From contig OZ243961.1 in NCBI GenBank assembly GCA_965214605.1, forward strand, positions 2,080,001 to 2,144,000: a stretch of 64,000 bases of DNA, written 5' to 3'. Source of the DNA: an uncultured Candidatus Binatia bacterium (GTDB lineage Bacteria > Desulfobacterota > Binatia > Bin18). How positions within the stretch are numbered: the first letter of the stretch is position 1; each line of letters starts with the position of its first letter. The notes under the pieces were generated by a model. The model was not told where the DNA came from, made no database searches, and worked only from the letters and a program-made list of their open reading frames with translations. Positions 4,921 through 24,027 of the stretch are shown piece by piece. Position numbers and translations under genes: made by a program.

Positions 4921-5934
4921 TCAAGCCGACCCGGCCGTCTTGATAATCCGCTTAGCCAGTTGTCTGAAATCACAGTGCGCGTCCCGGACCGCAGCAGCAT
5001 GGCTCCCGATAGCCCCGTCGGCTGGGGTGAGAGAGAAGATAGGCTTCCGGCTCTCCTGTGCCATCGGGACCAGACTGCGGTAATGCTTGACGGTGGCCAG
5101 GCAATGTTGGTCTTCGGCTGGCGAAGCAGGAAACTGCCCGTTTGTCTGATCAAGCAGATTTCTGGCGTACTCTTCCGGCATCCGGTTGATCCATCGGTCA
5201 TACGCTTTGACCGGGCGGCTGAGGCGGACACTGTGCTGTTGCACGATATACCCAAGGGGTTCCATGCGGCCCACAGGCAAAGGGAATGCTGGCGACGACC
5301 AGTTTACTCGTCTCTTCTCCCACTCTTGACGCCAGCGCCTGAGCGTTGGACCGAGGTTGCGCAGGCCCTGCAGGGAAAACAGATCAGCGCCCAGGGGAAC
5401 GATGACATGATTGGTGGCGATGAGGGCGGAGCGATTGATGGCGCCAAGATTGGGGCCAACATCAGCCAGAATGACCGTCGCGTCCATCTCTTTCGCGCCC
5501 AACTGCATCACGGTCCAGAACGAGGTCAGAATCCGAAACGGCCGATACAGATTGGCAGAGCCCAAGGCGTCTGGCCATTCACCAGATAACGTGTCCTCAA
5601 ACCCGGACAGCGCCAGGGCGCCGGGGAGCAGGTTGAGAGACGAGGTGATTTTTTGGAGTGCGGGAGGCAACAAATCCCCGACCTCTAACAGAGGCTTGAC
5701 GCATTCGAAAATGGTTCTGCCAGTGCTTTTACCACACGCCCCCACCCCTCCGTCCCAAAGCGTTTCCAGCTGTTCTTCGTCCAGAAACGCGGCAGACAGA
5801 TTGGCTTGCGGATCCAGGTCGCAGGCGAGCACCCGATGGCCGGTCTGCGACAGCATCCAGGCCAGATTGTAGGCCAGGGAAGTTTTGCCGACGCCACCCT
5901 TGTTGTTGAAGAAGGTCAGTACGGGGATAGTCAT
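4921..5934 (-). CDS. ParA/MinD-superfamily ATPase (AAA_31-like), island-associated subfamily
   Basis: Deviant Walker A NNKGGVGKT, DLDPQANLS, DVGPNLG; start overlaps the upstream stop (ATGA). Confidence 0.88.
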   Translation of the reverse strand: MTIPVLTFFNNKGGVGKTSLAYNLAWMLSQTGHRVLACDLDPQANLSAAFLDEEQLETLWDGGVGACGKSTGRTIFECVKPLLEVGDLLPPALQKITSSLNLLPGALALSGFEDTLSGEWPDALGSANLYRPFRILTSFWTVMQLGAKEMDATVILADVGPNLGAINRSALIATNHVIVPLGADLFSLQGLRNLGPTLRRWRQEWEKRRVNWSSPAFPLPVGRMEPLGYIVQQHSVRLSRPVKAYDRWINRMPEEYARNLLDQTNGQFPASPAEDQHCLATVKHYRSLVPMAQESRKPIFSLTPADGAIGSHAAAVRDAHCDFRQLAKRIIKTAGSA

Positions 5935-7139
5935 GATGAGCGCCCCCGGATGGTCACCTGGACGAAGGTATCCTCAACGATGAATTCCGGCTCGGGATGG
6001 CCATAGTCCTTCAACGCCTTTTTTGCGGCGGGAATGCCGACCCCGAAACGCTGCACATAGCCGAACACTTTCAGAGCCTCCGCCACATTCGGATTCCGAT
6101 AGTCGGTCACACCGGGCTGGCCAAAATTCTCCCGAGTCACGATACCAAAGGCGCCACCCGGGTTCTGGACTTCAATCCGGTCGTTGAACCAGGAGACCCG
6201 TACCGGCGCGTTGGTGGCCTCATAGGCGCGGTGCATCACCGCATTGCGCGTGATCTGCTGAAGCGCCACCAGGGGGTAGGTCGGCTCGCGCCGCTCCCAG
6301 TCCGCCCCGGTCAGGTCGATGCTTGTGCTGATATGGGCCTTCATCTTCTCATCAATGCGCCGCACGATCTCTGAAAGCGTTCCGTCTATGGTTTCCTCGT
6401 CGACGATGGGATCTGACCACGCGGTTCCGTCGATACGCAGGAACTGGATATAGGAATTGGTGATAAAGTCTCGGGGACGTTTGCCGAGCACTAGGAGGCC
6501 CAGCACGGTAGCTGTAGGATTGGCGATGGAAGCGATCATCTTGGTCGTCGCAAGGCGCTGGTTCGTGCTACGCTCGTTCGCTTCGAGGATCTCGGCACTG
6601 AACGCCCGCGGCAGATATTCCTCATCGAACTGACGCAGGCTGAGGTCGGAGACGGCGGTGCCGGGTACGGACTGAATATCGAACGGGATGGCGCCCGACC
6701 GCCGCTTCTCGGTGAGAATGCGTTCCTCATGTTCGGTCGCGATCGCCCGTTGGGGGCCGCCCCGCACGTGAATGGCACCTTTGTAGCGAACAGGCGGGGA
6801 GTCCGATGGCAACACGGTTACCACGGCGACCTCCTTGCCCCGCAGGGTCCGTTTTTCGACCAGCAGGGACGGCGGAGGAACAATGTTGCCATCGGTCTTA
6901 ATATTGCCCAGCTGCGTGAGCAGTTCATCGTCAATGTCAAGGCCACTGGGCTCCCCGTTATCTCTCAGGCCAACGAAGACCACCCCAGCTTGCCCGGAGC
7001 CGGGCAAGTCATTGGCAAATGCACAGACGGCCTCTCGGATCCTGGTTGGCGCTTTACCCTTCAACGTTTCCTTGTACTCAACACGGAAGCTCTCGCCCTG
7101 ATCCATTACCTCTACCAGTTCTCTATCGGTCAGTCGCAT
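5931..7139 (-). CDS. Schlafen/AlbA_2 domain + HATPase_c_4-like (RecG-C-terminal-like) protein
   Basis: GESFRVEYKE, VCAFAND, GVVFVGLRDNG (AlbA_2); ALQQITRNAVMHRAY, RIEVQNPG, YRNP, GYVQRFGVGI (HATPase_c_4). Confidence 0.85.
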   Translation of the reverse strand: MRLTDRELVEVMDQGESFRVEYKETLKGKAPTRIREAVCAFANDLPGSGQAGVVFVGLRDNGEPSGLDIDDELLTQLGNIKTDGNIVPPPSLLVEKRTLRGKEVAVVTVLPSDSPPVRYKGAIHVRGGPQRAIATEHEERILTEKRRSGAIPFDIQSVPGTAVSDLSLRQFDEEYLPRAFSAEILEANERSTNQRLATTKMIASIANPTATVLGLLVLGKRPRDFITNSYIQFLRIDGTAWSDPIVDEETIDGTLSEIVRRIDEKMKAHISTSIDLTGADWERREPTYPLVALQQITRNAVMHRAYEATNAPVRVSWFNDRIEVQNPGGAFGIVTRENFGQPGVTDYRNPNVAEALKVFGYVQRFGVGIPAAKKALKDYGHPEPEFIVEDTFVQVTIRGRSS

Positions 7140-7268
7140 CACCTTAGCTCTTGGTCTTAGGATATGGGGAAAGGGTGGATATTTCCAGCCGTCCACTGGG
7201 CGTCCTACCCTACTCACTGGGCCTCAGTAGGTGAGCCGCCCCCCGGTTTTCCACCTTGGCGCTACCAG

Positions 7269-7874
7269 CTACCCATCCGGCAGCGCCAGATAGCGGTACA
7301 GCGTAGACCGTGAGATATGGAGCGTCTGGCAAATATCCTGCACCTCATGCGTGCGGTCCTGATAGAGTGCCTTGGCCATCTGCACCCGGGGATCGTGCGG
7401 GTCCAGCGACGGCCGCCCGCCTAGGCGTCCGCGCGCCCGCGCCGCGGCCAGCCCGGCCCGCGTCCGTTCCTGAATCAGCCGCCGTTCAAACTGCGCCAGC
7501 GCCGAAAAAATATTAAACACCAGCTCGCCCGACGCCGTCGTCGTATCAATGGCGCCGTCACAGATCGACCGAAAGCCGATGCCCTGCTCCTGCAGCTCCT
7601 CCACCAGCGTCACCAAGTGCGCCATCGACCGCCCCAAACGATCCAGGCGCCAGACCAGCAGCAGGTCGCCGGCCTCCAAGGTCTCCAGACATTTGGTCAA
7701 ACCCGGCCGGTCCGCCTTCGCCCCCGATGCCTTATCCACAAAGATCAGTTCCTCTCGACACCCCTGAGCCTTCAGTGCATCCACCTGCATGCGCAGCTCC
7801 TGCTCCGTTGTACTGACCCGAGCATAGCCAATCGTCCTCCCCGCCTCCCGAGCCCCATTTTTCTTCCGTGTCAT
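7269..7874 (-). CDS. Serine recombinase (resolvase/invertase) with C-terminal HTH
   Basis: [49 protein letters not shown]. Confidence 0.93.
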
Positions 7875-7879
7875 CGCGT

Positions 7880-7990
7880 ATATGATACACAGATTTTTGA
7901 GACGGGTAATATAGAATACATTTCTCCGTCTCGGCTCCCCTACCCGACCCGTCGTGTCGCTGTCTCGCAAAACCTCGTTTGCCAAGACAC
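7880..7990. promoter_or_regulatory. Putative res site / resolvase promoter
   Basis: GTCTC/GAGAC-type half-sites (TTTTTGAGACG; TGTCTCGCAAAACCTCGTTTGCCAAGACAC) directly upstream of the resolvase. Confidence 0.4.
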
Positions 7991-8311: not shown

Positions 8312-9420
8312 ATGCAAGTGACCTTTCCAGCCATGCGCTCACAAATGGGGGGGCGCAATTACTACGCCACTACGATGGTACTCTCGGAGATACCTCGCCT
8401 CTTCAAGTTCAATGACTGGGAGCGATTCAGCTGCGAGCCCAGCGAGTTCTGAACGAGTCGCGGGTTCCTGTGATCGCAAAGTACATCGTGGACAATGAGG
8501 ACTCCTATTTGTTCTCGTCGATCACGGCGTCTTACTCATCAGACACCATCAAATTCAAGCCGACATCGAAGAACCAGCCCGATATCGGCTACATCGAACT
8601 TGCACTTGAGGAGATGGAATTTGTGATCAACGACGGCCAGTACCGATGTGCGGCTATCGCACAGGCATTAAAGGAAAATCCTACCCTCGCCAAAGATCGC
8701 ATCTCTGTTTTGCTCTTCCCCATGGAGAACATCGACTGGATGCAACAGATGTTCTCAGACCTAAACCGGTTCGCTCAGCGGTCGTCAAAGTCGCTCAACA
8801 TCTTGTACGACCACCGTGACAACCTTGCGGCGCTCACCAATGTCGTTGTGGAAAAAGTCGACGTCTTTCGCGGTCTTGTAGATATGGAGCGTGTGTCTAT
8901 TCCCATCCGCTCGGAGAAACTGTTTGCGCTTTCCACGCTCTACGATGCGAACAAAGAGCTACTGGGCAATAAGATCGATCCGGCTGGCTCAGGTCCGTAC
9001 GAGAAGACATGTGATCGCGCGGTGAACTACTGGAATGCCTTGGCAGAGATCATGACAGACTGGAAGAAGGTTTCTGAGGGTCTTGTTCCCGCCGCTGCGG
9101 TCCGCCAAGAGAAAATCAGTACGCACGCCACCGTGCTCCGTGCGCTCGGTGGAGTTGGTCGTATTCTGAACGAGTACCATCCAGATCAGTGGCGTAAACA
9201 TCTCAAGTACCTTTCTCAGGTAGACTGGCGAAAGAGCGTAGGCGGCAAAGTCAATCCAATGTGGGATGGTGTCTGCATCTCCGCTGGCTCCGTTATTGCA
9301 AACCGCTAGGCTCGCCTTGCCACACTCGAAACCCTGTGTCGCGCAACGCACGTCGCCCAAGACAGCATCCCGGGTATGCGCAAACGCGGCCGGCCTCGTA
9401 AGGCAAACAAGAAGGATTAA
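8312..9420 (+). pseudogene. DndB-like / DGQHR-domain protein (frameshift near 8430, premature TAG at 9307)
   Basis: MQVTFPAMRSQMGGRNYY..., RAQRVLNESRVP, INDGQYR, QQMFSDLN, LYDHRD; the frame continues past TAG to KRGRPRK...KD*. Confidence 0.75.
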
Positions 9421-9559
9421 ATCATGAACAACAACACTCTTTTCGAGACCTTACTTCATGCGGAACATGAGAACGCTGTGATCGACGTACTGGATAAGGT
9501 CGGCTACTCCCTGCGAGGCCGAGATCTTTCTCTCGGGTGCTCTTGAATTTACTCGCCAC

Positions 9560-10282
9560 ATGCTCTTACGCCGCAGCAACTTCGCTCGCGCGGTGTTGTT
9601 GCGACTCGGACAGGTAACCCTAGACTGCCGTGACTTCGTGCCCGACCGGAGCGAGCTTGCGGAGAGGCTGCCGGCGCTCGTCGAGGAGATGCTCTCCGGT
9701 CTTGACGAACTGGTAGAAAGTTGTCGGGAATCGGGCATTCCAAAAAATGCTATCACTGGCCGAAAGCTTCTGCTCCATCGAAGCGCAGTTGGGTTGGAAG
9801 AGGATCGGCGGGTAAGCCATACGATCCGGCTCCCTCGGTTAGTATTTACGTCGCCACCGTATCCAGGGGGCCATGTTCTTTACAATCGCTGGCAATGCCG
9901 AGGAAGGCGTGAGACTCCTGCTCCTTACTAGATTGCTAACGTCAGCGATGGATACGGCCCCGCTTACTACTGCGGCGGAAGTCGAACGCCGACTGGTCTG
10001 CATAAATACTTCCAGATGATCATACATGCTTTTACATCCGTAAAACGGGTCATGCATCCAGACGGACGGGTCGTCCAGATCGTGGGTTTCTCTGACGTAC
10101 AGTCTCAATTACCCACCTACCTCGAAGCGATGGAGCATGCGGGGTTTCGGGAGGTTCGCTCCTCTGAGTTCGGCGGTGAGTTTTTACAACGTAGGGTGGC
10201 AAACCGCAGATGGTACGCAAAGGTTAAGGGTGATATCGATGCCTCCACCGAATTTCTGCTCGTGCACCGCGTTCGGCAGTAG
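9560..10282 (+). pseudogene. N4-cytosine/N6-adenine DNA methyltransferase C-terminal fragment
   Basis: LVFTSPPY catalytic motif; in-frame TAG at 9929-9931; same frame resumes to 10282; N-terminus missing. Confidence 0.7.
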
Positions 10283-10637: not shown

Positions 10638-11255
10638 CTACGCTTGAGCTAGGACAGTCGCGACAAAACGATTCCCATATACACGCCCAGCCTGTGAAGC
10701 CGACAAGTACTGGACCACCAATATTCCGATATAGATGGAAGCGTCTCTCAGCGGCACAAGCCACAATACCAAAAAAGGTATAGCGGCCAACAGAAAAAGA
10801 GCACTGAATGCAGTGTAGTCGCGTGCGAGAAGAAATAGACGGTGCACATCCGCCACCTTCGGCACCTCTTGCACGGTCTTATAGAACTGATACCACTGCC
10901 GGTTTTGTTCTCCTGGATCAACCGGCAGTGGACCCAAACGCTCTACGACCATTTTTGGTTGCACTCGCGAATCCGAATGGAGGATCTCGGAAAAGGCACG
11001 TGTACCCGGTAGCGGATGTCTCCACCGCCAGAACACCAAACGCGCTTTGTTGTCCGCACTCACTAATCCGTTGATGATGTGGACGAGGAATGGCAATGCA
11101 GCTCCACCAACGATCTGTTCCAGATCTGCCCAAAGACTAGTCCAGCCTTGGGCGAGAATATCCTGGACTTTGAGCACGCCAATAAGTGCTACCGCGTTGA
11201 TGCTTAGAAAAATGGTATGGCCGAGCACGTTTTTTTCTTTAAGTGTCTTCGCCAT
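10638..11255 (-). CDS. Four-TM membrane protein, third gene of the MBL/E2-E1-JAB operon
   Basis: Four hydrophobic segments around a soluble loop (FWRWRHPLPGTRAFS...QNRQWYQFYK); starts 14 nt after the E2-E1-JAB stop. Confidence 0.75.
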   Translation of the reverse strand: MAKTLKEKNVLGHTIFLSINAVALIGVLKVQDILAQGWTSLWADLEQIVGGAALPFLVHIINGLVSADNKARLVFWRWRHPLPGTRAFSEILHSDSRVQPKMVVERLGPLPVDPGEQNRQWYQFYKTVQEVPKVADVHRLFLLARDYTAFSALFLLAAIPFLVLWLVPLRDASIYIGILVVQYLSASQAGRVYGNRFVATVLAQA

Positions 11256-11269
11256 GACAAAAGAACCTT

Positions 11270-13579
11270 CTAGTCTCCCTCTGGACGGGCATCTGCACTA
11301 TCAGCAAGAATCGCGTGGAAATCAGCCGGCGCCCATATCAGAAGAACCGATGGTGTGAGACGTGCCAAGGAGACTGCTCTCGCGGTCGCCTGATCTGTCC
11401 CAGAAGGGCCGCTTGCGGAAAGATGGCTGTGCCAGGTTCCCAAGCAGTAGAGTGACCATCCTACGGCCTCCGAGTATGTCTTCATCTGTTGGCGCAATCC
11501 CTTTGTCCCAAGGATAAATCCGCTCGCTGAGCGCTTGCTATCCTCCGGCGCGTCCAACACGTCGACGATATGAGCGACTTGGGATGCCTCCGAAACCCTG
11601 CCCATCAGCACGCCCCCGGTCTCAACCTTTGCCCAGCGCGTGGCCGCCTTCCGAATCTTTGCCACAGCACGTGCATGAACGTGAATACGCCATGATGCAC
11701 TGTTCGTCGTCGGAACAACAGTCACAGGTGGAATCTTATGGGGGCGCCATGTCAGTCCACAACCATCTTCAGACAGCCGGCCGATAAGTACCTCCCCTCC
11801 ATCGGGCGACAACCCTTCACGCTGCCGGGTCAACAAATATTGAGCCATAGCGGCTGCGAACAGGGACAGCTGTCCGTCCGACATCACCATGGTCAGAGAG
11901 CCACAGCCTTGGCCGATGCTTTGCCGTGATACCGTCTCAGCGCCGTCGAAGACGATGGGAGCCACAGCTGAATCCTCTCGCAGGAGCGCATAATATTCAG
12001 CGATAAGATCGGCGGTGTTCGGATTCCGGCCTGGCCCTTCGGTGGTGATCATCCCGACACGGCCACCGGCAAAGAGCGATGTTTCAACGACTCGCGTGGG
12101 CATGAGACGAGTGGCAGCAAGAGCTTCACGAACGGCCAGGGATGCCGTGGCATTCACAACCGCCCAGGAACGCTTTGACCAGGCGCGTTTTGCTAGGGCT
12201 TTGGACGTGAGAACCTTTACAGCATTCTTCATGATCGGCGTCGCCTTCTGGTTCAGTCCTCGTAGTGACTCGCACAGACCCCGAGCCTTTGCATCTGCCC
12301 AGAGAAGTTGCATATCGCCCGGCGCCGGGATAAGCGCATGGCGCGCAGCGTTGTGTGGCATCATTGTCGATTTATCAAGAACGACTTCCGGACCTTGTCC
12401 AGCCCGCGCGAGATGAAGCGCCAGCTTCGAGCCCAGGCTACCGGCCCCGATAAGCGTCCAGCGTGGCCGTTTCGAGGTCGCCGCGCCCCCGCTCATTTGA
12501 GCAAGAAGGGGGCGTGTTATGGCATGACGATGTCCAGCTGGTCGAACCGCCGTTGCACTGCTATTGGGGAACAGATCAGGGAAACAAATGTTCATGATAT
12601 ACGGGCACAACTCGACGGGGCTCTGACTGCCAATAACGTTGAACGGCCGGCGGGCGAGGAGGATTATCGCCAGCGGAAACGGCCCCGCCTGTCGGTACTT
12701 TGACAGGCATTGCTTCAGCCAGTTGAGGCCGGCATTGAGTCCGTTTGCGCAGCCATACTGCGCCGCGCGTTCCTTCAAGTCATCGACACTGCTGACCGTT
12801 TCCGGGAGATAGATGTCACAGATAGCCTGTTCGCCTTTATCCGGCCGTACGACGAGCGCCAACGATTTACCGTGAGAGAGGCACGAGGTTCTGTCTCCCT
12901 GGCCTTCTCCAAAAAGATTTGCTACAGCAGCGCGATTGACCTTGAGCGTATTGACTGAAATCTGGCCGTGGATAAATTCTGAATGGCCGTTACCACCCAT
13001 CTTTAGGTAACGCAGTTCATGGAAACTGTGTCCACCTCTGCGGTTCACCAGCTGACGAAGGCCATCGGCGTCAGCGACGAGATAATCTTTGAGGGAATCG
13101 CGCCGGACAGGTTCCCACCCCTGTTCTGGATCAATGAGCGTGTCGGAAGCGGCACGCTCAAGCCAGACGGCAGTCTGGTCTAGGATGGCGGCCAGTCCTC
13201 CTTCGTGGAGCAATTCGTCCAGGCTTCCATCATAGATACAAGGAACGGGCCGGCCTTCCGTTAAGTATGGCTGTATGTGCGGCAGATTCCGGGGGAAGTC
13301 GGTGCGCAGCGAGAGGCCGGGCGGATACAGGGGGAAGTTGCTTGGGAAGTCAAAACGCACGACCTCTTTTTGCCTGACACCTAAAGGACTTTCCCCGCAT
13401 GGCTTCCACTCGCTCGGTAGATTGACGTTGAAGACCACATCAACGGTGGTAGTCCCATTTGCTTCATGAAGAGAAAGGTCTTCCACATCGGACACGGCGG
13501 GATGCTTGCACATCAAAGCTCGCGCGCGCAGGAGTGCTTTCCTGTGTCCGCGGTCAGAGGCCATCGTTATTTGTCTCAC
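11270..13579 (-). CDS. Prokaryotic E2 - E1(ThiF) - JAB peptidase fusion (Cap2-Cap3-like)
   Basis: E2: FPSNFPLYPP...PHIQP...PCIYDG. E1: IGAGSLGS, HNAARH, VNATAS, GQGCGS. JAB: ETGG, WHSH...PSGTD. GTG start overlaps the MBL stop. Confidence 0.88.
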   Translation of the reverse strand: MRQITMASDRGHRKALLRARALMCKHPAVSDVEDLSLHEANGTTTVDVVFNVNLPSEWKPCGESPLGVRQKEVVRFDFPSNFPLYPPGLSLRTDFPRNLPHIQPYLTEGRPVPCIYDGSLDELLHEGGLAAILDQTAVWLERAASDTLIDPEQGWEPVRRDSLKDYLVADADGLRQLVNRRGGHSFHELRYLKMGGNGHSEFIHGQISVNTLKVNRAAVANLFGEGQGDRTSCLSHGKSLALVVRPDKGEQAICDIYLPETVSSVDDLKERAAQYGCANGLNAGLNWLKQCLSKYRQAGPFPLAIILLARRPFNVIGSQSPVELCPYIMNICFPDLFPNSSATAVRPAGHRHAITRPLLAQMSGGAATSKRPRWTLIGAGSLGSKLALHLARAGQGPEVVLDKSTMMPHNAARHALIPAPGDMQLLWADAKARGLCESLRGLNQKATPIMKNAVKVLTSKALAKRAWSKRSWAVVNATASLAVREALAATRLMPTRVVETSLFAGGRVGMITTEGPGRNPNTADLIAEYYALLREDSAVAPIVFDGAETVSRQSIGQGCGSLTMVMSDGQLSLFAAAMAQYLLTRQREGLSPDGGEVLIGRLSEDGCGLTWRPHKIPPVTVVPTTNSASWRIHVHARAVAKIRKAATRWAKVETGGVLMGRVSEASQVAHIVDVLDAPEDSKRSASGFILGTKGLRQQMKTYSEAVGWSLYCLGTWHSHLSASGPSGTDQATARAVSLARLTPSVLLIWAPADFHAILADSADARPEGD

Positions 13580-14742
13580 CCGTGGGAAAGAGGCTGGCTG
13601 CTTATGATCCCTGGGCCGGAGGCAGCGCTCTTTCTCATAAGTGTCGTCCGTAGGCGTGGTCCATGCCCAGTGACCTCAAACTCCATGGCATCGGGCGACT
13701 CCTCCGACGGGTATTCACCGACACATTTGAACTCCCCGTGCACGCCGTCCACAATTTCTTCATACTCGCGCTTTGCGCCGATGCAAGGCGGATCGTTGTC
13801 GTCATCTTTGATGGGATTGCTGCTGGAGACGATTGTCGCTCCGTCTCGTGCTTGCGAGAGAGCAGCGCGTGCGTCCTCAGACACCTCGGCCTCTCCGTCC
13901 GATTCGCTCCAACTTTCATACGACAGACTGTGCCATGAGCAGTGGTGGGGTGCCTGGAGAATGTCATAGGACAGTCTCTTCGGGTACTCGCGATGACGCT
14001 GCCAGAGCCTCTCCCAGATGGCGACTTCGGTATCCCCTGCGGTAAAAAATATACACTTAGCGGCGATTCCATCCCCGGCTAGGGAAAACCGAAGGATCGT
14101 GCTCGAATTATTTTTCGATAACGTCTCTTCTTCATCGTCGTTATCTGTCTTGGGGAGTGGGCCAAGGAGTCGAGCCGTCATCGACGTATCCTTCTGACCG
14201 TTGATACGCGAGAACTCCTCATCCACACGGATCAGAATCTCTTCGAGATCGTCGGTCTTTCCATCCTCATCTTCGCCAAGAATAAGGATGCGGTCACCGT
14301 CTTCCACGGCTCCATTCATGTCGCGGAATTTCTTGACCCGGCGACGCGCTTCGCTATTGAACGCCTTGGCGTCTTTAGAGAGGGTATGGTGTCGTGAGGC
14401 ACGTCGAAACACCATCGGCGATGACCATAGCTCCCGAATGAAGATTTTATCCGCGTCCGCAGACCATTCGCCTAGTGGCCCGAGGTGAAAATGCTTTTGG
14501 AGCCCGGCGCAGTGGTCTTTATCAGGATGACTGAGAAGCAGGGCATCTACATACAGCCGTCCGTCGTCATCGCGGTCGAGGCGGTCTCGGAGCATTTCAG
14601 CGACATCCGGCGTATCATCGTCCAGATTGTCCGCATCGGCTCGAATGTTGAGGTCTAGCAGGAGCTTGCGGCCGGATTCCGTCTTAATGAGGGTCATATC
14701 GCCGTTGCCCACCGGAAGAAACGCCAGGGTTGCTTTAGCCAT
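13576..14742 (-). CDS. Metallo-beta-lactamase-fold (ComEC-like) hydrolase
   Basis: VGNGD, SHPDKDH, NNSS, AGD, APHHCSWHS motifs; GGAGAGGAG RBS before ATG 14742; ends ...PLSHG. Confidence 0.88.
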   Translation of the reverse strand: MAKATLAFLPVGNGDMTLIKTESGRKLLLDLNIRADADNLDDDTPDVAEMLRDRLDRDDDGRLYVDALLLSHPDKDHCAGLQKHFHLGPLGEWSADADKIFIRELWSSPMVFRRASRHHTLSKDAKAFNSEARRRVKKFRDMNGAVEDGDRILILGEDEDGKTDDLEEILIRVDEEFSRINGQKDTSMTARLLGPLPKTDNDDEEETLSKNNSSTILRFSLAGDGIAAKCIFFTAGDTEVAIWERLWQRHREYPKRLSYDILQAPHHCSWHSLSYESWSESDGEAEVSEDARAALSQARDGATIVSSSNPIKDDDNDPPCIGAKREYEEIVDGVHGEFKCVGEYPSEESPDAMEFEVTGHGPRLRTTLMRKSAASGPGIISSQPLSHG

Positions 14743-14767
14743 GATCTCTCCTCTCCACTTTGGTTTA

Positions 14768-14856
14768 TGACGGTCCGACCCTTGGCATTGCCGGACTCGC
14801 CATGCTAAGCATGACGGCATGATAGACCATCGTAAATATACCGTCAAGGTTAAAAT
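14768..14856. promoter_or_regulatory. Divergent promoter with TGACGG operator repeats
   Basis: Minus-strand TTGACG(14847-14842)-N17-TATCAT(14824-14819); TGACGG at 14768 and 14812, inverted CCGTCA at 14841. Confidence 0.6.
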
Positions 14857-14868
14857 GGCGATATCGAC

Positions 14869-15225
14869 ATGAAAAAGAACCCATCTACGGCTTTCAAAGA
14901 CCGTCTTCGGACGGCGCGCGATGAATTACGCGGCATGAGCCAAGTCGCACTCGCGAAAGCGACAGGCTTACCGCCAAGTTCGATTGCTCACTTCGAAGGA
15001 GGCACCCGCAAGCCTTCTTTCGACAACCTGCGCAAACTTGCCACCGTCTTGAATGTGACGACGGACTACTTGCTGGGTCGGATCGACGAGCCGGAGGTCG
15101 CCGCCACGGCCGATCCGCTCTACCGCTATGGGGCAAGGCTGACTGACAAAGACCGCTTACTCGCAGCGGAATTCATGCAGATGTTAGAAAAACTTGATCG
15201 CAAAGATCGAGAGACCAGCGAATGA
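14869..15225 (+). CDS. XRE-family HTH regulator (CapH-like)
   Basis: RLRTAR..RGMSQVALAKATGLPPSSIAHFEGGTRKPS...VTTDYLLG. Confidence 0.9.
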   Translation: MKKNPSTAFKDRLRTARDELRGMSQVALAKATGLPPSSIAHFEGGTRKPSFDNLRKLATVLNVTTDYLLGRIDEPEVAATADPLYRYGARLTDKDRLLAAEFMQMLEKLDRKDRETSE

Positions 15226-16118
15226 GCCAGAAGACCGAGCCGCGTGGATTTCTCCTGATGCGGCAGGCCAAGCGCCTTCTGAGGGATGAGGAGTTATTGC
15301 GTCTTCCCGTTGACCTCGAAAGCCTTGCCAGGACCCGCGATATTGTCATTGGACGGATGCCCGGCCCTAACACCGGTGTATCAGGGATGCTCGTTCGCCA
15401 CGGCAATACCTTCGGTATTCTGTATGCCACGGCCATTCCTAACGAAGGCTTCCAGCGTTTCAGTATTGCTCATGAGCTTGGCCACTTCTTTATTGACGGG
15501 CATATCGACCATATCCCGTTCGACGGGGCTCTGCACGAATCATACGCGGATTTCGTCTCCAACGATCCATACGAGCGTGAAGCAGACTATTTTGCTGCCG
15601 GCTTGCTCATGCCGGAAACTCCCGTATGCGGCATCATACGGGAGCAACCGGACGGGCTTTGCACCATTGAAGCCATCCAGCACGCAGCCCGGGCCTCTCT
15701 GACTGCCTCGGCCATCCGATACGTTGGACTGACAGAGAGTGCGACAGCCGTGATCGTTAGCCAGGGCGACAAGATTGACTACTGCTTCATGTCGAACACC
15801 CTGATGAAATCGTTCAGGGACCTCACCTGGCCTCGGAAGGGGGATCCAATCCCATCTGGAACGGTTACAGCGTCGATAGCACGGAAGCCGGATCAGTTGC
15901 GGCGCGACGCTCGGGACTCGGATGAAATCGACGCTATGGAATGGTTCGCCTGTGAACGATCCGTGCAAGCGCTTGAGGAGGTCGTAGGGCTCGGCAGCTA
16001 CGGTCGAGTTCTCACGGTTCTCACCTGTCCTAACCTTTTAGACGATGCCTTTATGGAAGAAGAGGAGGACTCGGACGAAGCCTTGGAAGAAAGCTGGACT
16101 CCTCACTTTCGGCGTTAG
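15222..16118 (+). CDS. ImmA/IrrE-family (M78) metallopeptidase (CapP-like)
   Basis: RFSIAHELGH zinc motif, EREADYFAAGLLMP; ATGA overlap with the HTH gene. Confidence 0.9.
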   Translation: MSQKTEPRGFLLMRQAKRLLRDEELLRLPVDLESLARTRDIVIGRMPGPNTGVSGMLVRHGNTFGILYATAIPNEGFQRFSIAHELGHFFIDGHIDHIPFDGALHESYADFVSNDPYEREADYFAAGLLMPETPVCGIIREQPDGLCTIEAIQHAARASLTASAIRYVGLTESATAVIVSQGDKIDYCFMSNTLMKSFRDLTWPRKGDPIPSGTVTASIARKPDQLRRDARDSDEIDAMEWFACERSVQALEEVVGLGSYGRVLTVLTCPNLLDDAFMEEEEDSDEALEESWTPHFRR

Positions 16119-16637: not shown

Positions 16638-17066
16638 ATGAATCGCCACGGAATGAACTGGATACGCCGAGAAAAGCGGCTGGCGCTGCACCTGCGGGAT
16701 GGGCTGGTGTGTGTGTACTGCGGCGCGGCCGGCGAGGACGGCGGGCAGCTCACCCTGGACCATCTGCGGCCTGTCAGCAAGGGCGGAACTAACGACGCGA
16801 GCAACCTGGTCACGGCGTGCTAGCAGTGCAACAGCAGCCGGGGCACTCGCAGCGTCCGGGGCTTCTGCAGGGAGGTGTCAGGCTACCTGGAGCATGGCAT
16901 CAGCGCCGGTGAGATCGAGCAGCACGTTCGGCGCTGTGCCGCCCGGCAGACCGACGCCCAAGCCGCAAAGGCGCTGATCGGCGGAGCGGGGCGACTGGAC
17001 CCAATGCCTCACAATGTAAAAGCTAAATTGTATTGCATTGCGCTACACGATATAATACAAAATTAA
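16638..17066 (+). pseudogene. HNH endonuclease with premature stop
   Basis: RDGLVCVYCG...LDHLRPVSKGGTN..SNLVTAC*QCN; TAG at 16821-16823 interrupts CxxCN and the frame continues. Confidence 0.8.
17028..17060 (+). promoter_or_regulatory. Sigma70 promoter overlapped by an inverted repeat
   Basis: TTGTAT(17028)-N17-TATAAT(17051); TTGTATT...AATACAA inverted repeat spans both boxes. Confidence 0.6.
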
Positions 17067-17085: not shown

Positions 17086-20000
17086 GTGTCTAAAGAATCA
17101 GAAAACCCCGCACATCCCGGCATTTTCATCAAGGAGTATGTCATCCCAGCAGGTATGTCGGTGACGGACGCGGCAAAGAGGTTAGGCGTGGGCAGACCCG
17201 CCTTGTCGAACCTGCTGAACGGCAATTCGTCGCTGTCCCCCAAGATGGCCGTCAGATTAGAAAAATCGTTTGGGACCGACCGCCAGAACCTGCTTGATCG
17301 GCAGGCGGCGTTCGACCTCCATCAGCGGCGCGGGAAAGAGAAGACCGTTGCGGCTCATGCCTACGTTCCGGCTTTTCTGACTATCAAGGCCCGGCAGATA
17401 GAAGAGTGGGCGGAGAGGAACCTTGACGCTCGCCATACGCTGGCGGTGCTGCTGCGCAAGCTGGTTCATTCGACTGGCCACGACCTGCGTCAGGTTGATT
17501 TCCCGGGCTACGACAACGCAGAGCGTCAGGGTTGGGATGGCTGGATCAAGGCTGAGGCGGCCACGCCGTGGATTCCCGAAGGCAAATCCGGCTGGGAGTT
17601 TGGTACGAATAAGAATCCGAAAGGCAAGGCCGAGAGTGATTATGCGGCCCGCCTCACTTCCATTTCTCCGTCCGAGCGAGCCGCATGCACTTTCGTCTTT
17701 GTCACCCCACGCAAGTGGCTGGGCAAGACCGACTGGGCCAGAAGCAAAAACGCAGAAGGCGACTGGAAAGCGGTGAGGGCGTTCGACGCGAGCGACCTTG
17801 AGCAGTGGCTGGAAGAGGCGATTCCCGCGCAGATGTGGCTTGCCGAACAACTCACCATGCCAGTCAGTGGATTCGAGACGCTAGATCGGTCCTGGCGACG
17901 CTGGGAAGAGGCGAGCGAGCCGAAGATGACGCCCACAATATTCGAGCCTTCAATCAGTGCGTACCGCAAGCCTTTCAAAGACTGGCTCGAAAAATCGAGC
18001 GAAAAGCCATTCGTGGTCGCAGCCGATTCCACAGATGAGGCGCTCGCGTTTCTCGCATGTCTGTTCCAGGACTTCGCCACGCGTTCGGAAGACCTTGCTA
18101 CAGTGTTCAAGTCGGCTGAGACGTTGCGGAGCCTGGCAGATTCGTCGTCACCGTTCATTCCAATCGTCTACACCGAAGAAGCCGAACGCGAACTGGCAGT
18201 CCTCTATCGCCGTCTGCACTCCATCATCGTTTGTCCCCGCAATGCTGTTGATTCAAAGCCGGATATTGCTCTTGACCTGTTGAATCACGAGACCTTTGAG
18301 AAGGCCCTTGCCGAGATGGGCATCAAAGATGACGAGGCTGAACGACTTGCGAGAGAGTCGGGCCGCTCTCCGACCATTCTGCGGCGGCGACTCTCGAAGA
18401 TCGACGCTATCAGGAAGCCCCAATGGTCCGGGGATGCGCAGGTCGCCAAGAGCCTGATCCCGATGACCTTGATCGGTGCATGGCACGTCCCGTCCAAGGC
18501 TGATTGCGAGGTTATATCCTGCCTTGCGGCGGGCAGGCCCTATCAGGATACTGAAGAGTGCATTGCCCGTTTGCTCCAATTCGACGACTGTCCTATCTGG
18601 TCCGTCGGAGAGTATCGTGGCGTTGCCTCGAAAATCGACGCCCTCTTCGCGATCCACAAGGACGTGACTGGAGACAATCTCAAGGATTTCTTCTTTCTCG
18701 CTGAATATGTGCTTTCCGAGAGCGACCCGGCGCTTGATTTGCCGGAGGACCAGAGATGGGCCGCAGGACTATATGGGAAGGTGCGTGATTACTCGACCGC
18801 GCTACGTGAGGGCATCTGTGAAACCCTCGTCATCCTCTCTGTCCACGGCAACAATCTGTTCCAAGAGCGCCTCGGGATAGACGTCGAGGTCCGGGTCTCC
18901 TCACTCATCCGGGGGCTCCTGACACCGCTCACCCTCGACAAACTGCTCTCGCATGACAGAGACCTGCCACACTACGCAGAAGCAGCGCCGGACGTGTTCC
19001 TGAGATTGCTTGAGGAAGACCTGCGACAACCTCAGCCAGTCGTACTCGGTCTTTTAAAGCCCGTTGAAAGCAGCTTGTTCATGTCACTGCCACGAACAGG
19101 GCTCTTGTGGGGGCTGGAATGCCTTGCCTGGCAACACCTTGGGCGCGTGAGCTTGATACTCGCGAAGTTGTCGGAAACCGGTATCAACGACAACTGGGCC
19201 AACAAGCCGGTCTCGAGCCTTCATGCGACTTATTGGGCGCGGTTACCGCAAACCGCCGCTTCGCTCGAAGAGCGGATGCAGGCCCTTGAGATGCTGACCA
19301 AGCGGTTTCCGGATATCGGCTGGCGGATTTGTATTGATCAGTTCAAGGTTATTCCAGGGGTAGGACATTATAGCTACCGGCCGCGTTGGCGTAGTGACGC
19401 TTCGGGCGCCGGCCGGTCGATGCCGCCGCAGAAAGAACGCTACGACTTCATACGGAACGCGCTTAATCTAGCACTCGCATGGCCAGAGCACGACCAGAAG
19501 ACGCTTGGCGATCTTGTTGAGCGCCTCCCGGTAACCGAGGAAGGCCGACCTTCGGTTTGGGACTTGATCGATACATGGGCAGCTTCGGAAACCGATGAAA
19601 ATGCCAAAGCCAGCCTTCGTGAGCGGATTCGTCACATCTCGTTCACGCGGCGAGGGCGGCGACTGGAGGACACAACAAAAGCCCGGGCGCGCATGGCGTA
19701 CGAAAAGCTGCAACCGCGCGATCTCAGTGTCCGGCACGCTTGGCTCTTCGCCCAGCACCGGATTGAGCCTTCCGCCGACGAGCTTCAGGATGAGAACTTC
19801 GACTACTCCAAACACGAGGAGAGGATAGGCAAGCTTCGCGGCGCGGCGATGAAAGAGATATGGGCAAAACATGGGTTTAAAGGCGTGGCTGCGCTCCTGT
19901 CTCGCAGCGATGCACCTGATACCGCCGGATATGCTCTGGGGATGAGCATGACAGGTGCGAAGGCACAGGCTGATTTTTTGCGGCAATGCCTCTCCTCTGC

Positions 20001-21150
20001 TCGTGATCTTGAGAGGAAAGGTGATGCCTGCATGCAGGGTTTCCTGATGGCGGTGAGCGACGAAGAGCGGGGTGCGGTGCTCTTAACCTGTGCCGAGGAT
20101 CTCGACACTGATCGGCTCGTGCGGTTGCTCCGGAGTGCTCCGTTTAAACAGGATACGTGGCGTTTGCTCGACCGATACGACACAACAATTCAGGATCGCT
20201 ATTGGCGGGAAGTCCTACCACAATGGAACCGCTACAGTGAAGCGGAATTGATCGAGATCATTGATCGCCTGCTTGAAGCACGGCGCCCCCGCGCCGCTTT
20301 CCATGCCGTCCATTTAGACTGGAGCAGGGTCGAGACCTCACGACTGAAACGGCTCCTTCTCGCCGTTGCCACCGTGGATGCCGAGCCGGCGGATTGGTAT
20401 AGACTGGACGCTTACCGCCTTTCGGAGGCGCTGGATTCGCTCACCGGCCGCTCTGGCGTCAGCCCGGACGAGATGGCGCGGCTTGAGTTCCTGTTCCTAA
20501 CAGCCCTTGAGGACAGCGACCATGGTATCCCCAATCTGGAACAGCAGATTGCCGAGTCTCCGACCCTCTTCGTTCAAGCGCTGGCTTTTGCGTTCAAACG
20601 TGAGGACGACGGGCAGGACCCGCCCGAATGGCGGATCGAAACCCCCGAGCGCCGGACCGAACTGACCTTCGCAGCCGATAGCCTTCTTCGTCGGATCAGA
20701 CGTATCCCGGGTACTGGGCAGGACGGCAAGGTCAATGCTGAAGCGCTGCTGAACTGGATAACAGAGGTGCGGCAGCTCTGCGCTGAACACGGCCGTGTCG
20801 AGGTCGGTGATGAGATGATCGGTGAACTGCTGTCCAAGACTCCTGTCGAAGAAGGCGGCGGCTGGCCGTGCCTTCCGGTCTGCGAGGCGATGGAAAAGAT
20901 TGGTTCCCAGCGGATTGGCGAAGGCTTCAACATCGGTGTTTTTAATGGGCGCGGTGTATATTCGCGCGGAAGGGACGAGGGGGGCGTCCAGGAACGCGAG
21001 CTCGCCACACAGTACCGGGGCTGGGCAAAGCTCCGCGCCTTCGACTTTCCCTATGTCAGCAGTGTCCTTGAAAGTATCGCAGCCAGCTATGACCGCGATG
21101 CGAAGAGGGAAGACACAGAAGAGAGAATCAGAAAGAGGCTGGGACATTGA
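17086..21150 (+). CDS. HigA-type HTH fused to a restriction-endonuclease-like domain, a central region and a long helical C-terminus; putative defence protein
   Basis: HPGIFIKE...SVTDAAKRLGVGRPALSNLLNG...MAVRLEKSFG (HigA); GWDG...PWIPEGKSGWEFGT...KAESDY (PD-(D/E)xK-like); intact 1354-aa ORF. Confidence 0.75.
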   Translation: MSKESENPAHPGIFIKEYVIPAGMSVTDAAKRLGVGRPALSNLLNGNSSLSPKMAVRLEKSFGTDRQNLLDRQAAFDLHQRRGKEKTVAAHAYVPAFLTIKARQIEEWAERNLDARHTLAVLLRKLVHSTGHDLRQVDFPGYDNAERQGWDGWIKAEAATPWIPEGKSGWEFGTNKNPKGKAESDYAARLTSISPSERAACTFVFVTPRKWLGKTDWARSKNAEGDWKAVRAFDASDLEQWLEEAIPAQMWLAEQLTMPVSGFETLDRSWRRWEEASEPKMTPTIFEPSISAYRKPFKDWLEKSSEKPFVVAADSTDEALAFLACLFQDFATRSEDLATVFKSAETLRSLADSSSPFIPIVYTEEAERELAVLYRRLHSIIVCPRNAVDSKPDIALDLLNHETFEKALAEMGIKDDEAERLARESGRSPTILRRRLSKIDAIRKPQWSGDAQVAKSLIPMTLIGAWHVPSKADCEVISCLAAGRPYQDTEECIARLLQFDDCPIWSVGEYRGVASKIDALFAIHKDVTGDNLKDFFFLAEYVLSESDPALDLPEDQRWAAGLYGKVRDYSTALREGICETLVILSVHGNNLFQERLGIDVEVRVSSLIRGLLTPLTLDKLLSHDRDLPHYAEAAPDVFLRLLEEDLRQPQPVVLGLLKPVESSLFMSLPRTGLLWGLECLAWQHLGRVSLILAKLSETGINDNWANKPVSSLHATYWARLPQTAASLEERMQALEMLTKRFPDIGWRICIDQFKVIPGVGHYSYRPRWRSDASGAGRSMPPQKERYDFIRNALNLALAWPEHDQKTLGDLVERLPVTEEGRPSVWDLIDTWAASETDENAKASLRERIRHISFTRRGRRLEDTTKARARMAYEKLQPRDLSVRHAWLFAQHRIEPSADELQDENFDYSKHEERIGKLRGAAMKEIWAKHGFKGVAALLSRSDAPDTAGYALGMSMTGAKAQADFLRQCLSSARDLERKGDACMQGFLMAVSDEERGAVLLTCAEDLDTDRLVRLLRSAPFKQDTWRLLDRYDTTIQDRYWREVLPQWNRYSEAELIEIIDRLLEARRPRAAFHAVHLDWSRVETSRLKRLLLAVATVDAEPADWYRLDAYRLSEALDSLTGRSGVSPDEMARLEFLFLTALEDSDHGIPNLEQQIAESPTLFVQALAFAFKREDDGQDPPEWRIETPERRTELTFAADSLLRRIRRIPGTGQDGKVNAEALLNWITEVRQLCAEHGRVEVGDEMIGELLSKTPVEEGGGWPCLPVCEAMEKIGSQRIGEGFNIGVFNGRGVYSRGRDEGGVQERELATQYRGWAKLRAFDFPYVSSVLESIAASYDRDAKREDTEERIRKRLGH

Positions 21151-21488: not shown

Positions 21489-22280
21489 ATGCAAGCAAAA
21501 CATCGTAGCATGGAACAGGTAAACATCCCCACAGTTGGGGCTCACGATGATAAGAGTCTCAAACGCTGCAAGACAACGCGAAAAGACGCGGTTAAAATAT
21601 TGCCGGCGACCGATGTTCTGGATACCCTCTCACATGCTCCGAAGACTGTGAAAGCCGTTATCCTTGATCCATGGTATAACAGGGGTGTCGGTGGGCAGAG
21701 AGAAGACTACAACGAATGGCTCACGACAGTTATTCAGGCAGCGTGCCGGGTTGCCGGGCATGTTTTTGTATGGGGATTTCCTGAGATACTGGCCTATCAG
21801 ATTGCCTCTATCCCCACCCATTGCAAGCTTGTGGCGTGGCTGACGTGGTATTATAAGAATTGTCCCTCCGTCATCCGTGGGTGGCGCTCCGCCCAAAACG
21901 CGTGTCTCCATATTGCGACAGATGAGGCACCGACCTATCCCGAGCATTTTTTGAGTCTAGCTCAGTTCCAGAAATGGAAAGAGGGGAAGATGCGTTTCAT
22001 CCCAGGTCCGCCCTCTGTCCTTGAGGCTCCCTTAAACATAGGATTTGTCGGAAAAGACGAGCAAACCGAACATCCAGCGCAGAAACCGCTCTCGGTCATA
22101 GAGCCACTGATTTTGATGTCTACACAAGAGAACGATGTCGTGCTTGATCCTATGTGCGGTTCAGGAACAACAGGAGAAGCTTGTCTCCGATTGAATAGGC
22201 GGGCGGTCTTGTGTGACCATGATCTCAAATGGGTGGCGCTTACACGGAACCGTATAAAAGAGTGCCATCATCCCGCGTAG
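21489..22280 (+). CDS. Orphan beta-class N6/N4 DNA methyltransferase
   Basis: ILDPWY (motif IV variant) precedes HPAQKP and VVLDPMCGSGTT (motif I); start uncertain. Confidence 0.85.
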   Translation: MQAKHRSMEQVNIPTVGAHDDKSLKRCKTTRKDAVKILPATDVLDTLSHAPKTVKAVILDPWYNRGVGGQREDYNEWLTTVIQAACRVAGHVFVWGFPEILAYQIASIPTHCKLVAWLTWYYKNCPSVIRGWRSAQNACLHIATDEAPTYPEHFLSLAQFQKWKEGKMRFIPGPPSVLEAPLNIGFVGKDEQTEHPAQKPLSVIEPLILMSTQENDVVLDPMCGSGTTGEACLRLNRRAVLCDHDLKWVALTRNRIKECHHPA

Positions 22281-22318: not shown

Positions 22319-22546
22319 CTAGTGAGATTTGCAGGCTTCCTGCCAGTTGCCGACAGAAGGGCGAAGGGTCGGTCCACCATCTGTCTCCTCAACCGACCAC
22401 TCAGTTGGACCGAGCGGCGTCCTGATCTTTGAGCCGCAGCCACAGGCGCACAGGTGTGCTACGGCGCCGAATTGTTCCGAAACGTAGAGTACGCCAGGTT
22501 CCAGGTCCTTCGGCATGTAGTGGACCCGCTGCAATCTAATCTTCAC
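22319..22546 (-). pseudogene. DUF6527-like Cys/His protein, C-terminally truncated
   Basis: LEPGVLYVS...HLCACGCG..I.TPL...W...LRPSVGNW..CKSH then TAG. Confidence 0.6.
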
Positions 22547-23729
22547 TAAGCTCGAAGTCCCCTACAGTCTTAAGGTCGCTCACTTCCAAGAGGAGATGGC
22601 AGTAGGGAACCTCCTCAAAATAGAAGCCGCGGAGCGGCTTGAACCTGATAACTGCCAAGCATGTGTTGAGAGCGTTGAGTTCACTGATTTGGATGTTCGT
22701 CCGATATTCATCGTCCGGGCTGTCCACCAGTGGGGCCAATTTTTTGTCCCGAATTACCTGTCCATGTTCGGCAGAATGATACGTCGTGCGCAACATGCCA
22801 TTGAGTGGACCTCTCTTGCGGTTTAAGTCCATGCCTGCATCAATGAACGGAATACCCTTTGAGATGAGCAAATCAAAGATGCCTGCTCGGGCCACACCTT
22901 TATCAACACAGACAAATGCAAAGGTCACACCGTCCAAATCGTTAAGGCATGAAGCATCGAGAAAAGTGCGACTCGTGGAAAGGCCCGTGCGGAAGTTCTC
23001 ATAGCGGCCGCGATAGACTTGCGCCTTAGGCTGGCCGAGTTCAGTTTTCTCTAGCCGGCCCGGGGAGCGAAAGGCGTTGCGGACGCAGAACAAATCTCGG
23101 TCGAATGCCCGGATTTCACGGACAGGGGTCTTTACAATGAAGTCTAGGACATATGCCCCTGTGCCGCCTAAGCCTGTCACAGCGATCACATCGTCTTTGA
23201 GCTTTGAAGCAAGATCAGTGATCTCTGCCCCACTCGTTAGTGTGTCGTGAAACTTGAAAACTGAATCAGACGGAATGTCCCCCACGAGGCGAAATGTGTA
23301 GGGGCTGACGCCATGCAATTCTGTCGCTGGCCCCGAGATTATCGCGACATAGCTTTCGATTTTATCGAAAAAATCCGAGAACTTTCCAGCGGGCTCTGGT
23401 TTGTTAGCAAATGAGCGCTCTCCGATTACGTCTTTACTAGCCTCACTCAGCGCAATCTGAGCAGGCCCGCCACCCAGATTTGGGATCGGCTTCCGATCCA
23501 ACCCGTGCGGCACAGACCCGGCGAAGAAGACTTGGGGGGCCGTCTGCCTGACGTGCTCCTGGTCTCTGAATTCAACCTTCGCAACGATTGCGCCGAACCG
23601 CAGCTGGTTTTCACTGTCCAGATACGGAATGTCCCGGACAACCAGGTGATTGCTGTCGAAGGCAACTGCGTAACCCCTTTTGACTCAACGCTGGAGGTCG
23701 TCGTTATGATTGACCAGTTTTTGTAACAC
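22536..23729 (-). pseudogene. DUF6791-like + ThiF/E1 adenylyltransferase with premature stop
   Basis: GTG at 23729, in-frame TGA at codon 15 (23685-23687), then VRDIPYLD..., GLGGTGAYVLD, NAFRSPG, FVCVD, NIQISELNALN. Confidence 0.75.
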
Positions 23730-23757
23730 TGAAGATCATCTCCTCTCTAATCTGTAT

Positions 23758-24027
23758 GGAGACGCCCGCCGCTCGACCCCCGGGATCCCCGGGTACAGAT
23801 GGCCAAGGCGCTCTACCAGGCCCGGACGCATGAGGTGCGGGATATTTGCCAAACCCTCCATATCGCCCGCTCGACGCTCTATCACTATCTGGGGGATACA
23901 GGGTGAGAACGCTGCACGGCGGTTTAGCCTCCATATCGCCCGCTCGACGCTCTATCACTATCTGGCCCTCCCGGATGCAGAGCCTGCAGGGCCAGGAGGG
24001 AAGCGGAAGGATGGAGGACGGCGGTAG
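23758..24027 (+). pseudogene. Resolvase C-terminal HTH remnant, inverted relative to 7269-7874
   Basis: Reads [36 protein letters not shown], nearly the same as the intact resolvase C-terminus. Confidence 0.8.
23855..23965 (+). repeat. 38-bp perfect direct repeat with 35-bp spacer
   Basis: CCTCCATATCGCCCGCTCGACGCTCTATCACTATCTGG at 23855-23892 and 23928-23965. Confidence 0.85.

Follow-up and report, generated by a model that had tools for sequence, protein, structure and literature searches.

What does a ubiquitin-like conjugation machinery act upon when its operon encodes a metallo-beta-lactamase-fold (MBL) hydrolase where CBASS (antiphage signalling based on cyclic oligonucleotides) would encode its cyclase? 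The question is raised by five genes at positions 10638-16118 of a 64,000-nucleotide stretch of DNA from an uncultured Candidatus Binatia bacterium (contig OZ243961.1, positions 2,080,001 to 2,144,000), the whole of which we refer to as the window. The locus is probably an intact anti-phage operon of the 6A-MBL type, controlled by CapH/CapP and lying within mobile-element cargo. 6A-MBL is an already catalogued system from which this copy differs in nothing essential, and the copy itself therefore adds little; a survey of its relatives, however, sharpens the wider question of what the ubiquitin-like ligases of CBASS, Pycsar and MBL systems attach their enzymes to.

Gene content and family assignment

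All five open reading frames (ORFs) are present where the first-pass annotation of this DNA, made from the sequence alone, had placed them, as seen in the ORF list with its translations. Three form an operon on the minus strand: the gene for the 6A-MBL enzyme, a ComEC-like MBL-fold hydrolase (13576..14742, 388 aa), that for Cap2_3, an E2-E1-JAB fusion (11270..13579, 769 aa), and as third gene that for a four-transmembrane (4TM) protein of a family that we term TM-A (10638..11255, 205 aa). The other two, on the plus strand, encode a CapH-like repressor of the XRE helix-turn-helix (HTH) family (14869..15225, 118 aa) and a CapP-like metallopeptidase of the M78/IrrE family (15222..16118, 298 aa). 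The operon order and the GTGA overlap that had been reported are borne out, the MBL stop and the Cap2_3 start sharing four nucleotides (minus strand ...TCC CAC GGG TGA, with the GTG overlapping the stop). The ATG of the TM-A gene lies 14 nt past the Cap2_3 stop (TAG), capP overlaps the capH stop by 4 nt, and the capH/capP pair diverges from the operon across 126 bp (14743..14868). The longest ORF for the MBL enzyme (13576-14847, minus strand) would give 423 aa, but we place its likely start at an ATG (14740-14742) with GGAGAGGAGAG ahead of it as ribosome-binding site, which yields 388 aa, because relatives begin at the same point. The longer TTG start was rejected on the same comparison, the relatives beginning at the methionine before 'A-x-L-x-F-x-P-V-G-N-G-D'.

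The assignment to the 6A-MBL class, already made in the first-pass annotation, is carried by two curated NCBIfam models, both matched far above their cut-offs. Cap2_3 scores 598.1 bits against NF058523, 'anti-phage 6A-MBL system cap2_3' (cut-off 320; profile positions 3-665 of 665), and the MBL enzyme scores 429.4 bits against NF058524, '6A-MBL_enzyme', a model of an MBL-fold protein (cut-off 220; profile positions 1-346 of 346), for which none of 14 control genomes gave a match. Within Cap2_3 we place an E2 domain at residues ~42-172, an E1/ThiF-like domain at ~370-583 and a JAB domain at ~626-756; Pfam matches Prok-E2_A at residues 42-172 (97 bits), Prok-JAB at 636-749 (34 bits) and ThiF at 370-501 (24.7 bits, under the 28.1 cut-off). 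The MBL enzyme matched no Pfam family. Cap2_3 also matches the PADLOC E1-E2 and JAB models, which upholds the analogy with Cap2 and Cap3 of type II CBASS.

The substitution of an MBL hydrolase for the cyclase, which the first-pass annotation pointed out, is a known arrangement. Operon type 6a was described in 2006 together with type 6b, which is CBASS, in the section of Iyer, Burroughs & Aravind (PMC1779556) that treats both, and both NCBIfam models and a defence-system name now exist. A review (PMC13276650) that names 6A-MBL in its passage on defence systems with ubiquitin-related parts gives Van den Berg et al. 2024 as the study that tested it; one preprint includes it in the known jumbo-phage defences (bioRxiv 10.1101/2025.09.30.679545), and the relevant part of a 2026 paper reports '6A_MBL' detected in an archaeon. 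In our literature search for a mechanism of 6A-MBL, the matching papers only name the system. The locus shares with type II CBASS homologous E2-E1 and JAB modules and a substrate enzyme whose flexible C-terminal tail has glycine as its last residue, and the JAB domain is presumably the eraser. In contrast to type II CBASS, Cap2 and Cap3 are fused here into one protein, the conjugated enzyme would be an MBL-fold hydrolase, and the locus has neither a CD-NTase nor a cyclic-nucleotide receptor effector. PADLOC and Pfam searches of the five proteins found no CD-NTase, cyclase or CBASS effector, barring JAB-containing fusions matched through JAB alone. A variant of type II CBASS was considered and rejected on the absence of the cyclase.

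The catalytic motifs of E2, E1, JAB and MBL, read as intact from the single sequence, are also invariant across 13 Cap2_3 and 15 MBL sequences. The Cap2_3 alignment consists of the window and 12 relatives, with locus L014 (in-frame stop) and the truncated L023 left out. Its invariant residues are H101 and C114 in the E2 domain, G378, G380, G383, K385, R392, D402 and C559 (in GQGCGS) in the E1 domain, and E653, H717, H719, S726 and D729 in the JAB domain. In the MBL enzyme they are D50 (in GNGDM), H107-P-D109-x-D111-H112, D272, H301 and H302; the metal motif is HPDKDH in the window, and the second MBL motif is HxDxDH, not HxHxDH. The CapP-like peptidase carries HELGH. In L014, which comes from a metagenome-assembled genome, the stop falls within Cap2_3 (L014:7001-9259): the frame ends at 7513 while tblastn aligns to 9259, so that this copy is either a pseudogene or an assembly error.

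The C-terminal tail and fold of the MBL enzyme

By analogy with type II CBASS, the likely 'ubiquitin' of this locus is the MBL enzyme. It ends in ...SQPLSHG (tail consensus QPLxHG), and its terminal His-Gly (H422-G423 of the 423-aa ORF) is invariant in 15 MBL sequences, ten of which stop there and five of which extend four to ten residues further. Among the best 120 of 3119 homologues (E <= 1e-10), 112 end in His-Gly and the other eight have His-Gly followed by a short extension. These extensions past the glycine, present in a minority, lead us to infer that the JAB domain may trim them. The AlphaFold (AF2) model of the enzyme has a predicted local distance difference test (pLDDT) score of 85.3, but its last 21 residues (368-388) fall below 50 and are disordered. 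The comparison that gives the tail its meaning is with the stand-alone MBLs of PDC-M48, a PADLOC candidate made up of a membrane protein (PDC-M48A) and an MBL (PDC-M48B), for which our literature search found no paper. None of nine PDC-M48B MBLs from ligase-free loci ends in glycine or carries the tail. The glycine tail is exclusive to MBLs with a Cap2_3 partner, which is a new point here. The part of Ye et al. (PMC11601596) that deals with type II CBASS, Pycsar and MBL pathways has their fused E2-E1 proteins conjugating the respective enzymes to unknown targets.

As to what the conjugated enzyme might do, the ComEC beta-lactamase-like domain gives clearly the closest fold (9ic4; E 2.3e-12, target-normalised TM-score 0.71), ahead of the phosphorylcholine esterase Pce, PNGM-1 and RNase J. 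The only solved sequence relatives are ComEC MBL domains, and these are weak (9ic4_A, E 0.0026; 30bt_A, E 0.028); a protein 73% identical to the enzyme is named 'ComEC/Rec2 family' by one database source. The N-terminal G-x-G-D and the H-x-D/H-x-D-H motifs are shared with ComEC, whereas the window's MBL is soluble and stands alone, with no channel fused to it, is ~120 residues longer and carries the conjugation tail. Our best guess is a phosphodiesterase, most likely a nuclease.

The membrane protein and its link to PDC-M48

The product of the third gene, TM-A, matched no Pfam, NCBIfam or PADLOC family, and its 50 database homologues are all unnamed and free of Pfam domains; a protein-atlas cluster name, 'putative Transposase', was distrusted, the cluster having no common Pfam family and the other clusters being unnamed. 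Among 27 aligned sequences (alignment A1), 15 columns are invariant, clustered in K-A-R-L-V-F-x-R-W-x-x-x-L-P-G-x-R-A-F-S and a later R-D-Y. The AF2 model is all-helical and confident (pLDDT 90.6). The hydropathy profile of the protein has three strong segments (10-28, 48-66 and 149-167), the model adds a fourth helix at ~169-190, and homologues give four peaks, in agreement with the four-helix topology first assigned to the protein. The loop at 30-46 has no lysine or arginine and the conserved domain at 65-131 has ten, a distribution by which, under the positive-inside rule, the 65-131 domain should face the cytoplasm. Fold searches returned no solved look-alike: the best Foldseek hit had an E-value of 0.79, and the best VIA-align hits (Z 6.4) were designed helical bundles, which is within noise for helical proteins.

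To place this gene we surveyed the window and 18 further loci: 12 of 13 related loci, one locus from a relative (L026) and five from a 401-genome phylum sample, with ORFs called mechanically. The remaining related locus, L023, stops where its contig does and contributed its MBL only. The MBL and Cap2_3 genes, located by tblastn, lie side by side in the same orientation in all 13 related loci of other genomes, in L026 and in five more; L003, on a 2.9-kb contig of genome G013, holds only an MBL fragment. A gene for a small membrane protein stands in the cluster at 19 of 19 loci, window included. At least two hydropathy segments are found in 17 of the 18 designated membrane neighbours and, by the same criterion, in only six of 144 other ORFs (150-360 aa, within 3 kb of the cores). 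The membrane gene, which the first-pass annotation had regarded as a feature of a variant, is thus typical of 6A-MBL loci.

The genes at this position come from at least three families. TM-A, assigned by hidden Markov model or tblastn, occurs in the window, L020, L021 and L035. A second family of ~250 aa, TM-B, with an N-terminal Y-x-x-x-A-R-x-x-P-A motif and 2+2 helices (alignment A2), occurs in eleven loci (L015, L016, L017, L019, L022, L024, L025, L026, L036, L038 and L039), and Pfam gave nothing real on its 11 proteins. Two loci carry the PDC-M48A type, L013 with 215 bits and L014, which was left unscanned and is assigned by its near-identical N-terminus and its size. The 164-aa membrane protein of L037 belongs to no family, and the 226-aa protein of L018, whose gene lies next to a PDC-M48B gene, has a single strong segment. 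When compared by hhalign, TM-A and TM-B gave a probability of 20.6% (E 0.0011, 145 colinear columns), which is suggestive but insufficient for a call of homology; TM-A against the PDC-M48A-type protein gave 1.3%. With homology among the families unproven, a shared role is inferred from position only. In an otherwise typical 6A-MBL locus, having an MBL gene followed by the E2-E1-JAB triple fusion, the catalytic residues and the C-terminal glycine tail, the window differs only in that its third gene belongs to the unnamed TM-A family, found in 4 of 19 loci, and not to TM-B as in 11 others. Lineages have exchanged the membrane gene: the loci with cores closest to the window's (L013, L014, L015 and L026; 54-65% Cap2_3 identity) carry other families, while the Cap2_3 proteins of the TM-A loci are only 35-37% identical to that of the window. 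L038 is a broken copy, its Cap2_3 frame falling into three ORFs between which lies a 94-aa ORF of the opposite strand. In the divergent locus L039, where Cap2_3 has only 620 aa, a small HTH-like ORF (unscanned) and a reverse transcriptase gene (RVT_1, 56 bits) lie upstream of the membrane gene (L039:859-2047), the latter in place of a CapP-type peptidase.

The same membrane families lead to PDC-M48. Like the window, PDC-M48 has a ComEC-like MBL together with a small multi-pass membrane protein; in the 6A-MBL locus L013 the third gene is PDC-M48A itself, and elsewhere TM-A or TM-B genes come after PDC-M48B genes. Six survey loci (L013, L016, L018, L025, L036 and L038) also hold another MBL gene, of PDC-M48B type, which lies beside or near the membrane gene in five of them and, in L013, upstream on the other strand. 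A TM-A profile search of the 401 genomes found five positives, two of which are 6A-MBL loci; the other three TM-A genes (3/3) directly follow a PDC-M48B gene, with no ligase nearby. The membrane protein and an MBL therefore form a module in its own right. The window's own proteins are not members of PDC-M48: TM-A matched none of the PADLOC families, PDC-M48A models included, and the MBL reached only 22.5 bits on PDC-M48B, over residues 98-139, whereas PDC-M48B proteins lack both the glycine tail (0/9) and a ligase. 6A-MBL looks like a membrane-protein and MBL module to which Cap2_3 and a glycine tail have been added. The advance offered by the survey is a modest one, namely a membrane partner that is universal but exchangeable, two families (TM-A and TM-B) for which there is no Pfam or PADLOC model, nor in the case of TM-A an NCBIfam one, and the link to PDC-M48. 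It also suggests that annotation models for 6A-MBL and PDC-M48 should take in both unnamed membrane families.

The glycine tail goes with the ligase, and the membrane protein goes with the MBL, ligase or not, which asks whether the membrane protein is the partner of the enzyme or its target. We tentatively propose that 6A-MBL is a three-component system in which a Cap2/Cap3-type switch has been inserted into a PDC-M48 module, the membrane protein being an obligatory partner of the MBL and possibly the target of conjugation. If this were true, ligation would hold the nuclease at the inner membrane, at the site of phage DNA entry, rather as ComEC joins the same nuclease fold to a channel. Both TM-A and TM-B have a conserved lysine after the second membrane helix, on the predicted cytoplasmic side (K70 in the window). 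Complex prediction for the MBL and the 4TM protein (alignments A3 and A1) scored 0.00 in both runs, which were made without controls, and has no bearing either way.

Defence systems often use small multi-pass membrane proteins as effectors, and the membrane protein, not the MBL, could be the component that kills, conjugation or MBL activity triggering membrane disruption and abortive infection in the manner of CBASS transmembrane effectors. The swapping of its gene between families, as happens with effector modules, would fit such a role, and the conserved domain predicted to be cytoplasmic could receive a signal. We regard this as unlikely, however: the metal ligands of the MBL are kept in every sequence, which suggests that MBL catalysis matters, the fold searches matched TM-A with neither a pore-former nor any other fold, and Pfam, PADLOC and NCBIfam find no second-messenger synthase among the five proteins that could supply the signal.

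Less probable still is a reading in which the 4TM gene is a passenger without relation to the system, or just whatever gene comes next on the mobile element, the unit being the classical two-gene 6a operon plus regulators. The passage on 6a operons in Iyer et al. 2006 (PMC1779556) has them 'usually with two genes', the NCBIfam models cover two components only, and the membrane families, at least three of them, lack demonstrable homology; moreover, the gene of L024 lies upstream on the other strand and that of L035 is 131 nt downstream. A passenger would hardly recur at 19 of 19 loci when only 6 of 144 other flanking ORFs resemble it, nor is it expected within 14 nt of the Cap2_3 stop, as in the window, or overlapping that stop by 4 nt, as in L017, L020 and L021. 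TM-A also follows a stand-alone MBL in all three of its other contexts.

Control, proposed mechanism and genomic setting

The regulators of the operon are close relatives of known ones. The HTH protein matches PADLOC capH (86.4 bits, E 5.8e-25) and Pfam HTH_3 (55 bits), and the peptidase matches PADLOC capP over nearly its full length (204.9 bits, E 3.2e-61, profile positions 6-241 of 242) and Pfam Peptidase_M78 (47 bits). As in the CapH/CapP pair, relatives of DdrO/IrrE, an HTH repressor and an M78 peptidase with HExxH stand divergently upstream of a defence operon, and nothing of note differs. Among the 19 loci, HTH and/or M78-type regulators occur in eight and WYL-type regulators in four. 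The eight comprise separate HTH and M78 genes in the window, L016 (its HTH known from the ORF list only) and L019, fused HTH-M78 genes in L013, L014 and L017, an HTH gene alone in L035 and a capP-like gene in L036; the four with a WYL-domain regulator are L018, L020, L021 and L037. In L026 a 218-aa neighbour shares an N-terminal motif with the WYL group and has no Pfam match. The type 6a operon that Lau et al. 2022 (bioRxiv 10.1101/2022.04.27.489752) give for Methylobacterium encodes, in order, CapP, CapH, one hypothetical protein, a metallohydrolase, E2-E1-JAB and another hypothetical protein, and the layout of the window is the same minus one gene. Damage-responsive regulators, which had also been put down to a variant, were therefore already in print with 6a.

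Features of the control region are consensus matches. A promoter-like site for the MBL operon (TTGACG-17-TATCAT) runs from 14847 to 14819 on the minus strand, and a 24-nt imperfect inverted repeat (14797-14820/14838-14861) overlaps it, making the repeat a plausible candidate for the CapH operator. The promoter-like site is not statistically special, because a scan of 6.2 kb found two sites where shuffled sequences led us to expect 3.0.

By analogy with Cap2/Cap3 of type II CBASS and with CapH/CapP, we envisage the following mechanism. CapH would repress the operon from the divergent promoter region until DNA damage or infection activates CapP, which would cleave CapH and allow expression to rise. 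The E1 domain of Cap2_3 would then adenylate the terminal Gly388 of the MBL enzyme, which may pass as a thioester to C559 and on to the E2 cysteine, Cys114, before being ligated to a target and thereby primed or localised. The JAB domain would remove the conjugate and, in relatives with residues past the glycine, may also trim the pro-tail. The MBL enzyme is the presumed effector, most likely as a phosphodiesterase or nuclease, and the 4TM protein would be its membrane partner, inherited from an older two-gene module of a membrane protein and an MBL (PDC-M48); its part may be to hold the enzyme at the membrane or to serve as a second effector.

Several points weigh against this account, and against reading the locus as an intact and regulated 6A-MBL operon with a membrane component. 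The biochemical steps are proposed by analogy, and the papers examined name no conjugation target. The ThiF score lies below the Pfam gathering threshold, though NF058523 spans that region. ComEC is a weak match by sequence (E 0.0026), and the fold matches next to it include a phosphorylcholine esterase, so that 'nuclease' is only the likeliest guess. The membrane families are not demonstrably homologous to one another, given an hhalign probability of 20.6% for TM-A and TM-B and nothing against the PDC-M48A type. The figure of 19 in 19 overstates independence, because the loci were found via their core genes and include kin (L020/L021 and L013/L014). Finally, promoter and operator are recognised by consensus, and the scan gave no more sites than shuffled sequence does.

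The surroundings of the operon are mobile-element cargo or a defence island. To its left lie genes for an ArdC-like antirestriction protein (831-1853), a ParA-like ATPase (4921-5934), a protein combining Schlafen AlbA_2 with HATPase_c_4 (5931-7217) and a serine recombinase (7269-7985), and the G+C content of the region is ~0.54-0.58 against 0.66-0.69 at 1-4 kb of the window. That the operon mainly serves this mobile element, for example in the processing of DNA, in entry exclusion or in a stress response, by means of a ComEC-like nuclease at the membrane, is a very remote prospect: the fold is closest to the DNA-uptake nuclease domain of ComEC, the ArdC, ParA-like and recombinase genes adjoin the locus and the regulators respond to DNA damage in general, but NCBIfam and the defence catalogues call the family anti-phage, later papers cite an experimental test in the parts that name the system, CapH/CapP- and WYL-type regulators are typical of defence operons, and the distribution is patchy. 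For the last of these, NF058523 was matched above its cut-off in 4 of 61 relatives (the window's own genome included) and NF058524 in 6 of the 401 genomes sampled from the phylum. In one genome (G027), a second Cap2_3 gene lies in three pieces (L028, G027:C1:1122000-1140000) besides an intact copy.

The first-pass annotation had described the neighbouring genes as pseudogenes, and this is borne out only in part. Decayed-looking neighbours span window positions 8470-10282 and 16638-16823: a methyltransferase-like frame (TSPPY motif) has an in-frame stop at 9929-9931, a DndB-like ORF is without ~50 N-terminal profile positions and an HNH ORF spans positions 1-37 of its 47-position profile, all three being judged from frame and profile coverage. 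The recombinase, the ParA-like ATPase, a 1354-aa protein and a DNA methylase, however, look whole. The 1354-aa protein (17086-21150, plus strand), in which nothing but an N-terminal XRE-type HTH (HTH_3, 37 bits) can be recognised, is possibly a large defence or regulatory protein, and the N6/N4 DNA methylase follows at 21489-22280. No tRNA that could mark an integration site occurs in the window, so that the borders of the island are undefined, although by gene content the right border lies roughly at 23.5-24.2 kb, ordinary genes (a two-component system, methionine synthase) beginning at ~24.2 kb. Just inside it, at 22536-23513 on the minus strand, is a second E1-like gene in which DUF6791 (51 bits) is fused to ThiF (36 bits); the stretch upstream of it (23510-24251) has stops in that frame, and the gene may be part of another ubiquitin-like or defence module.

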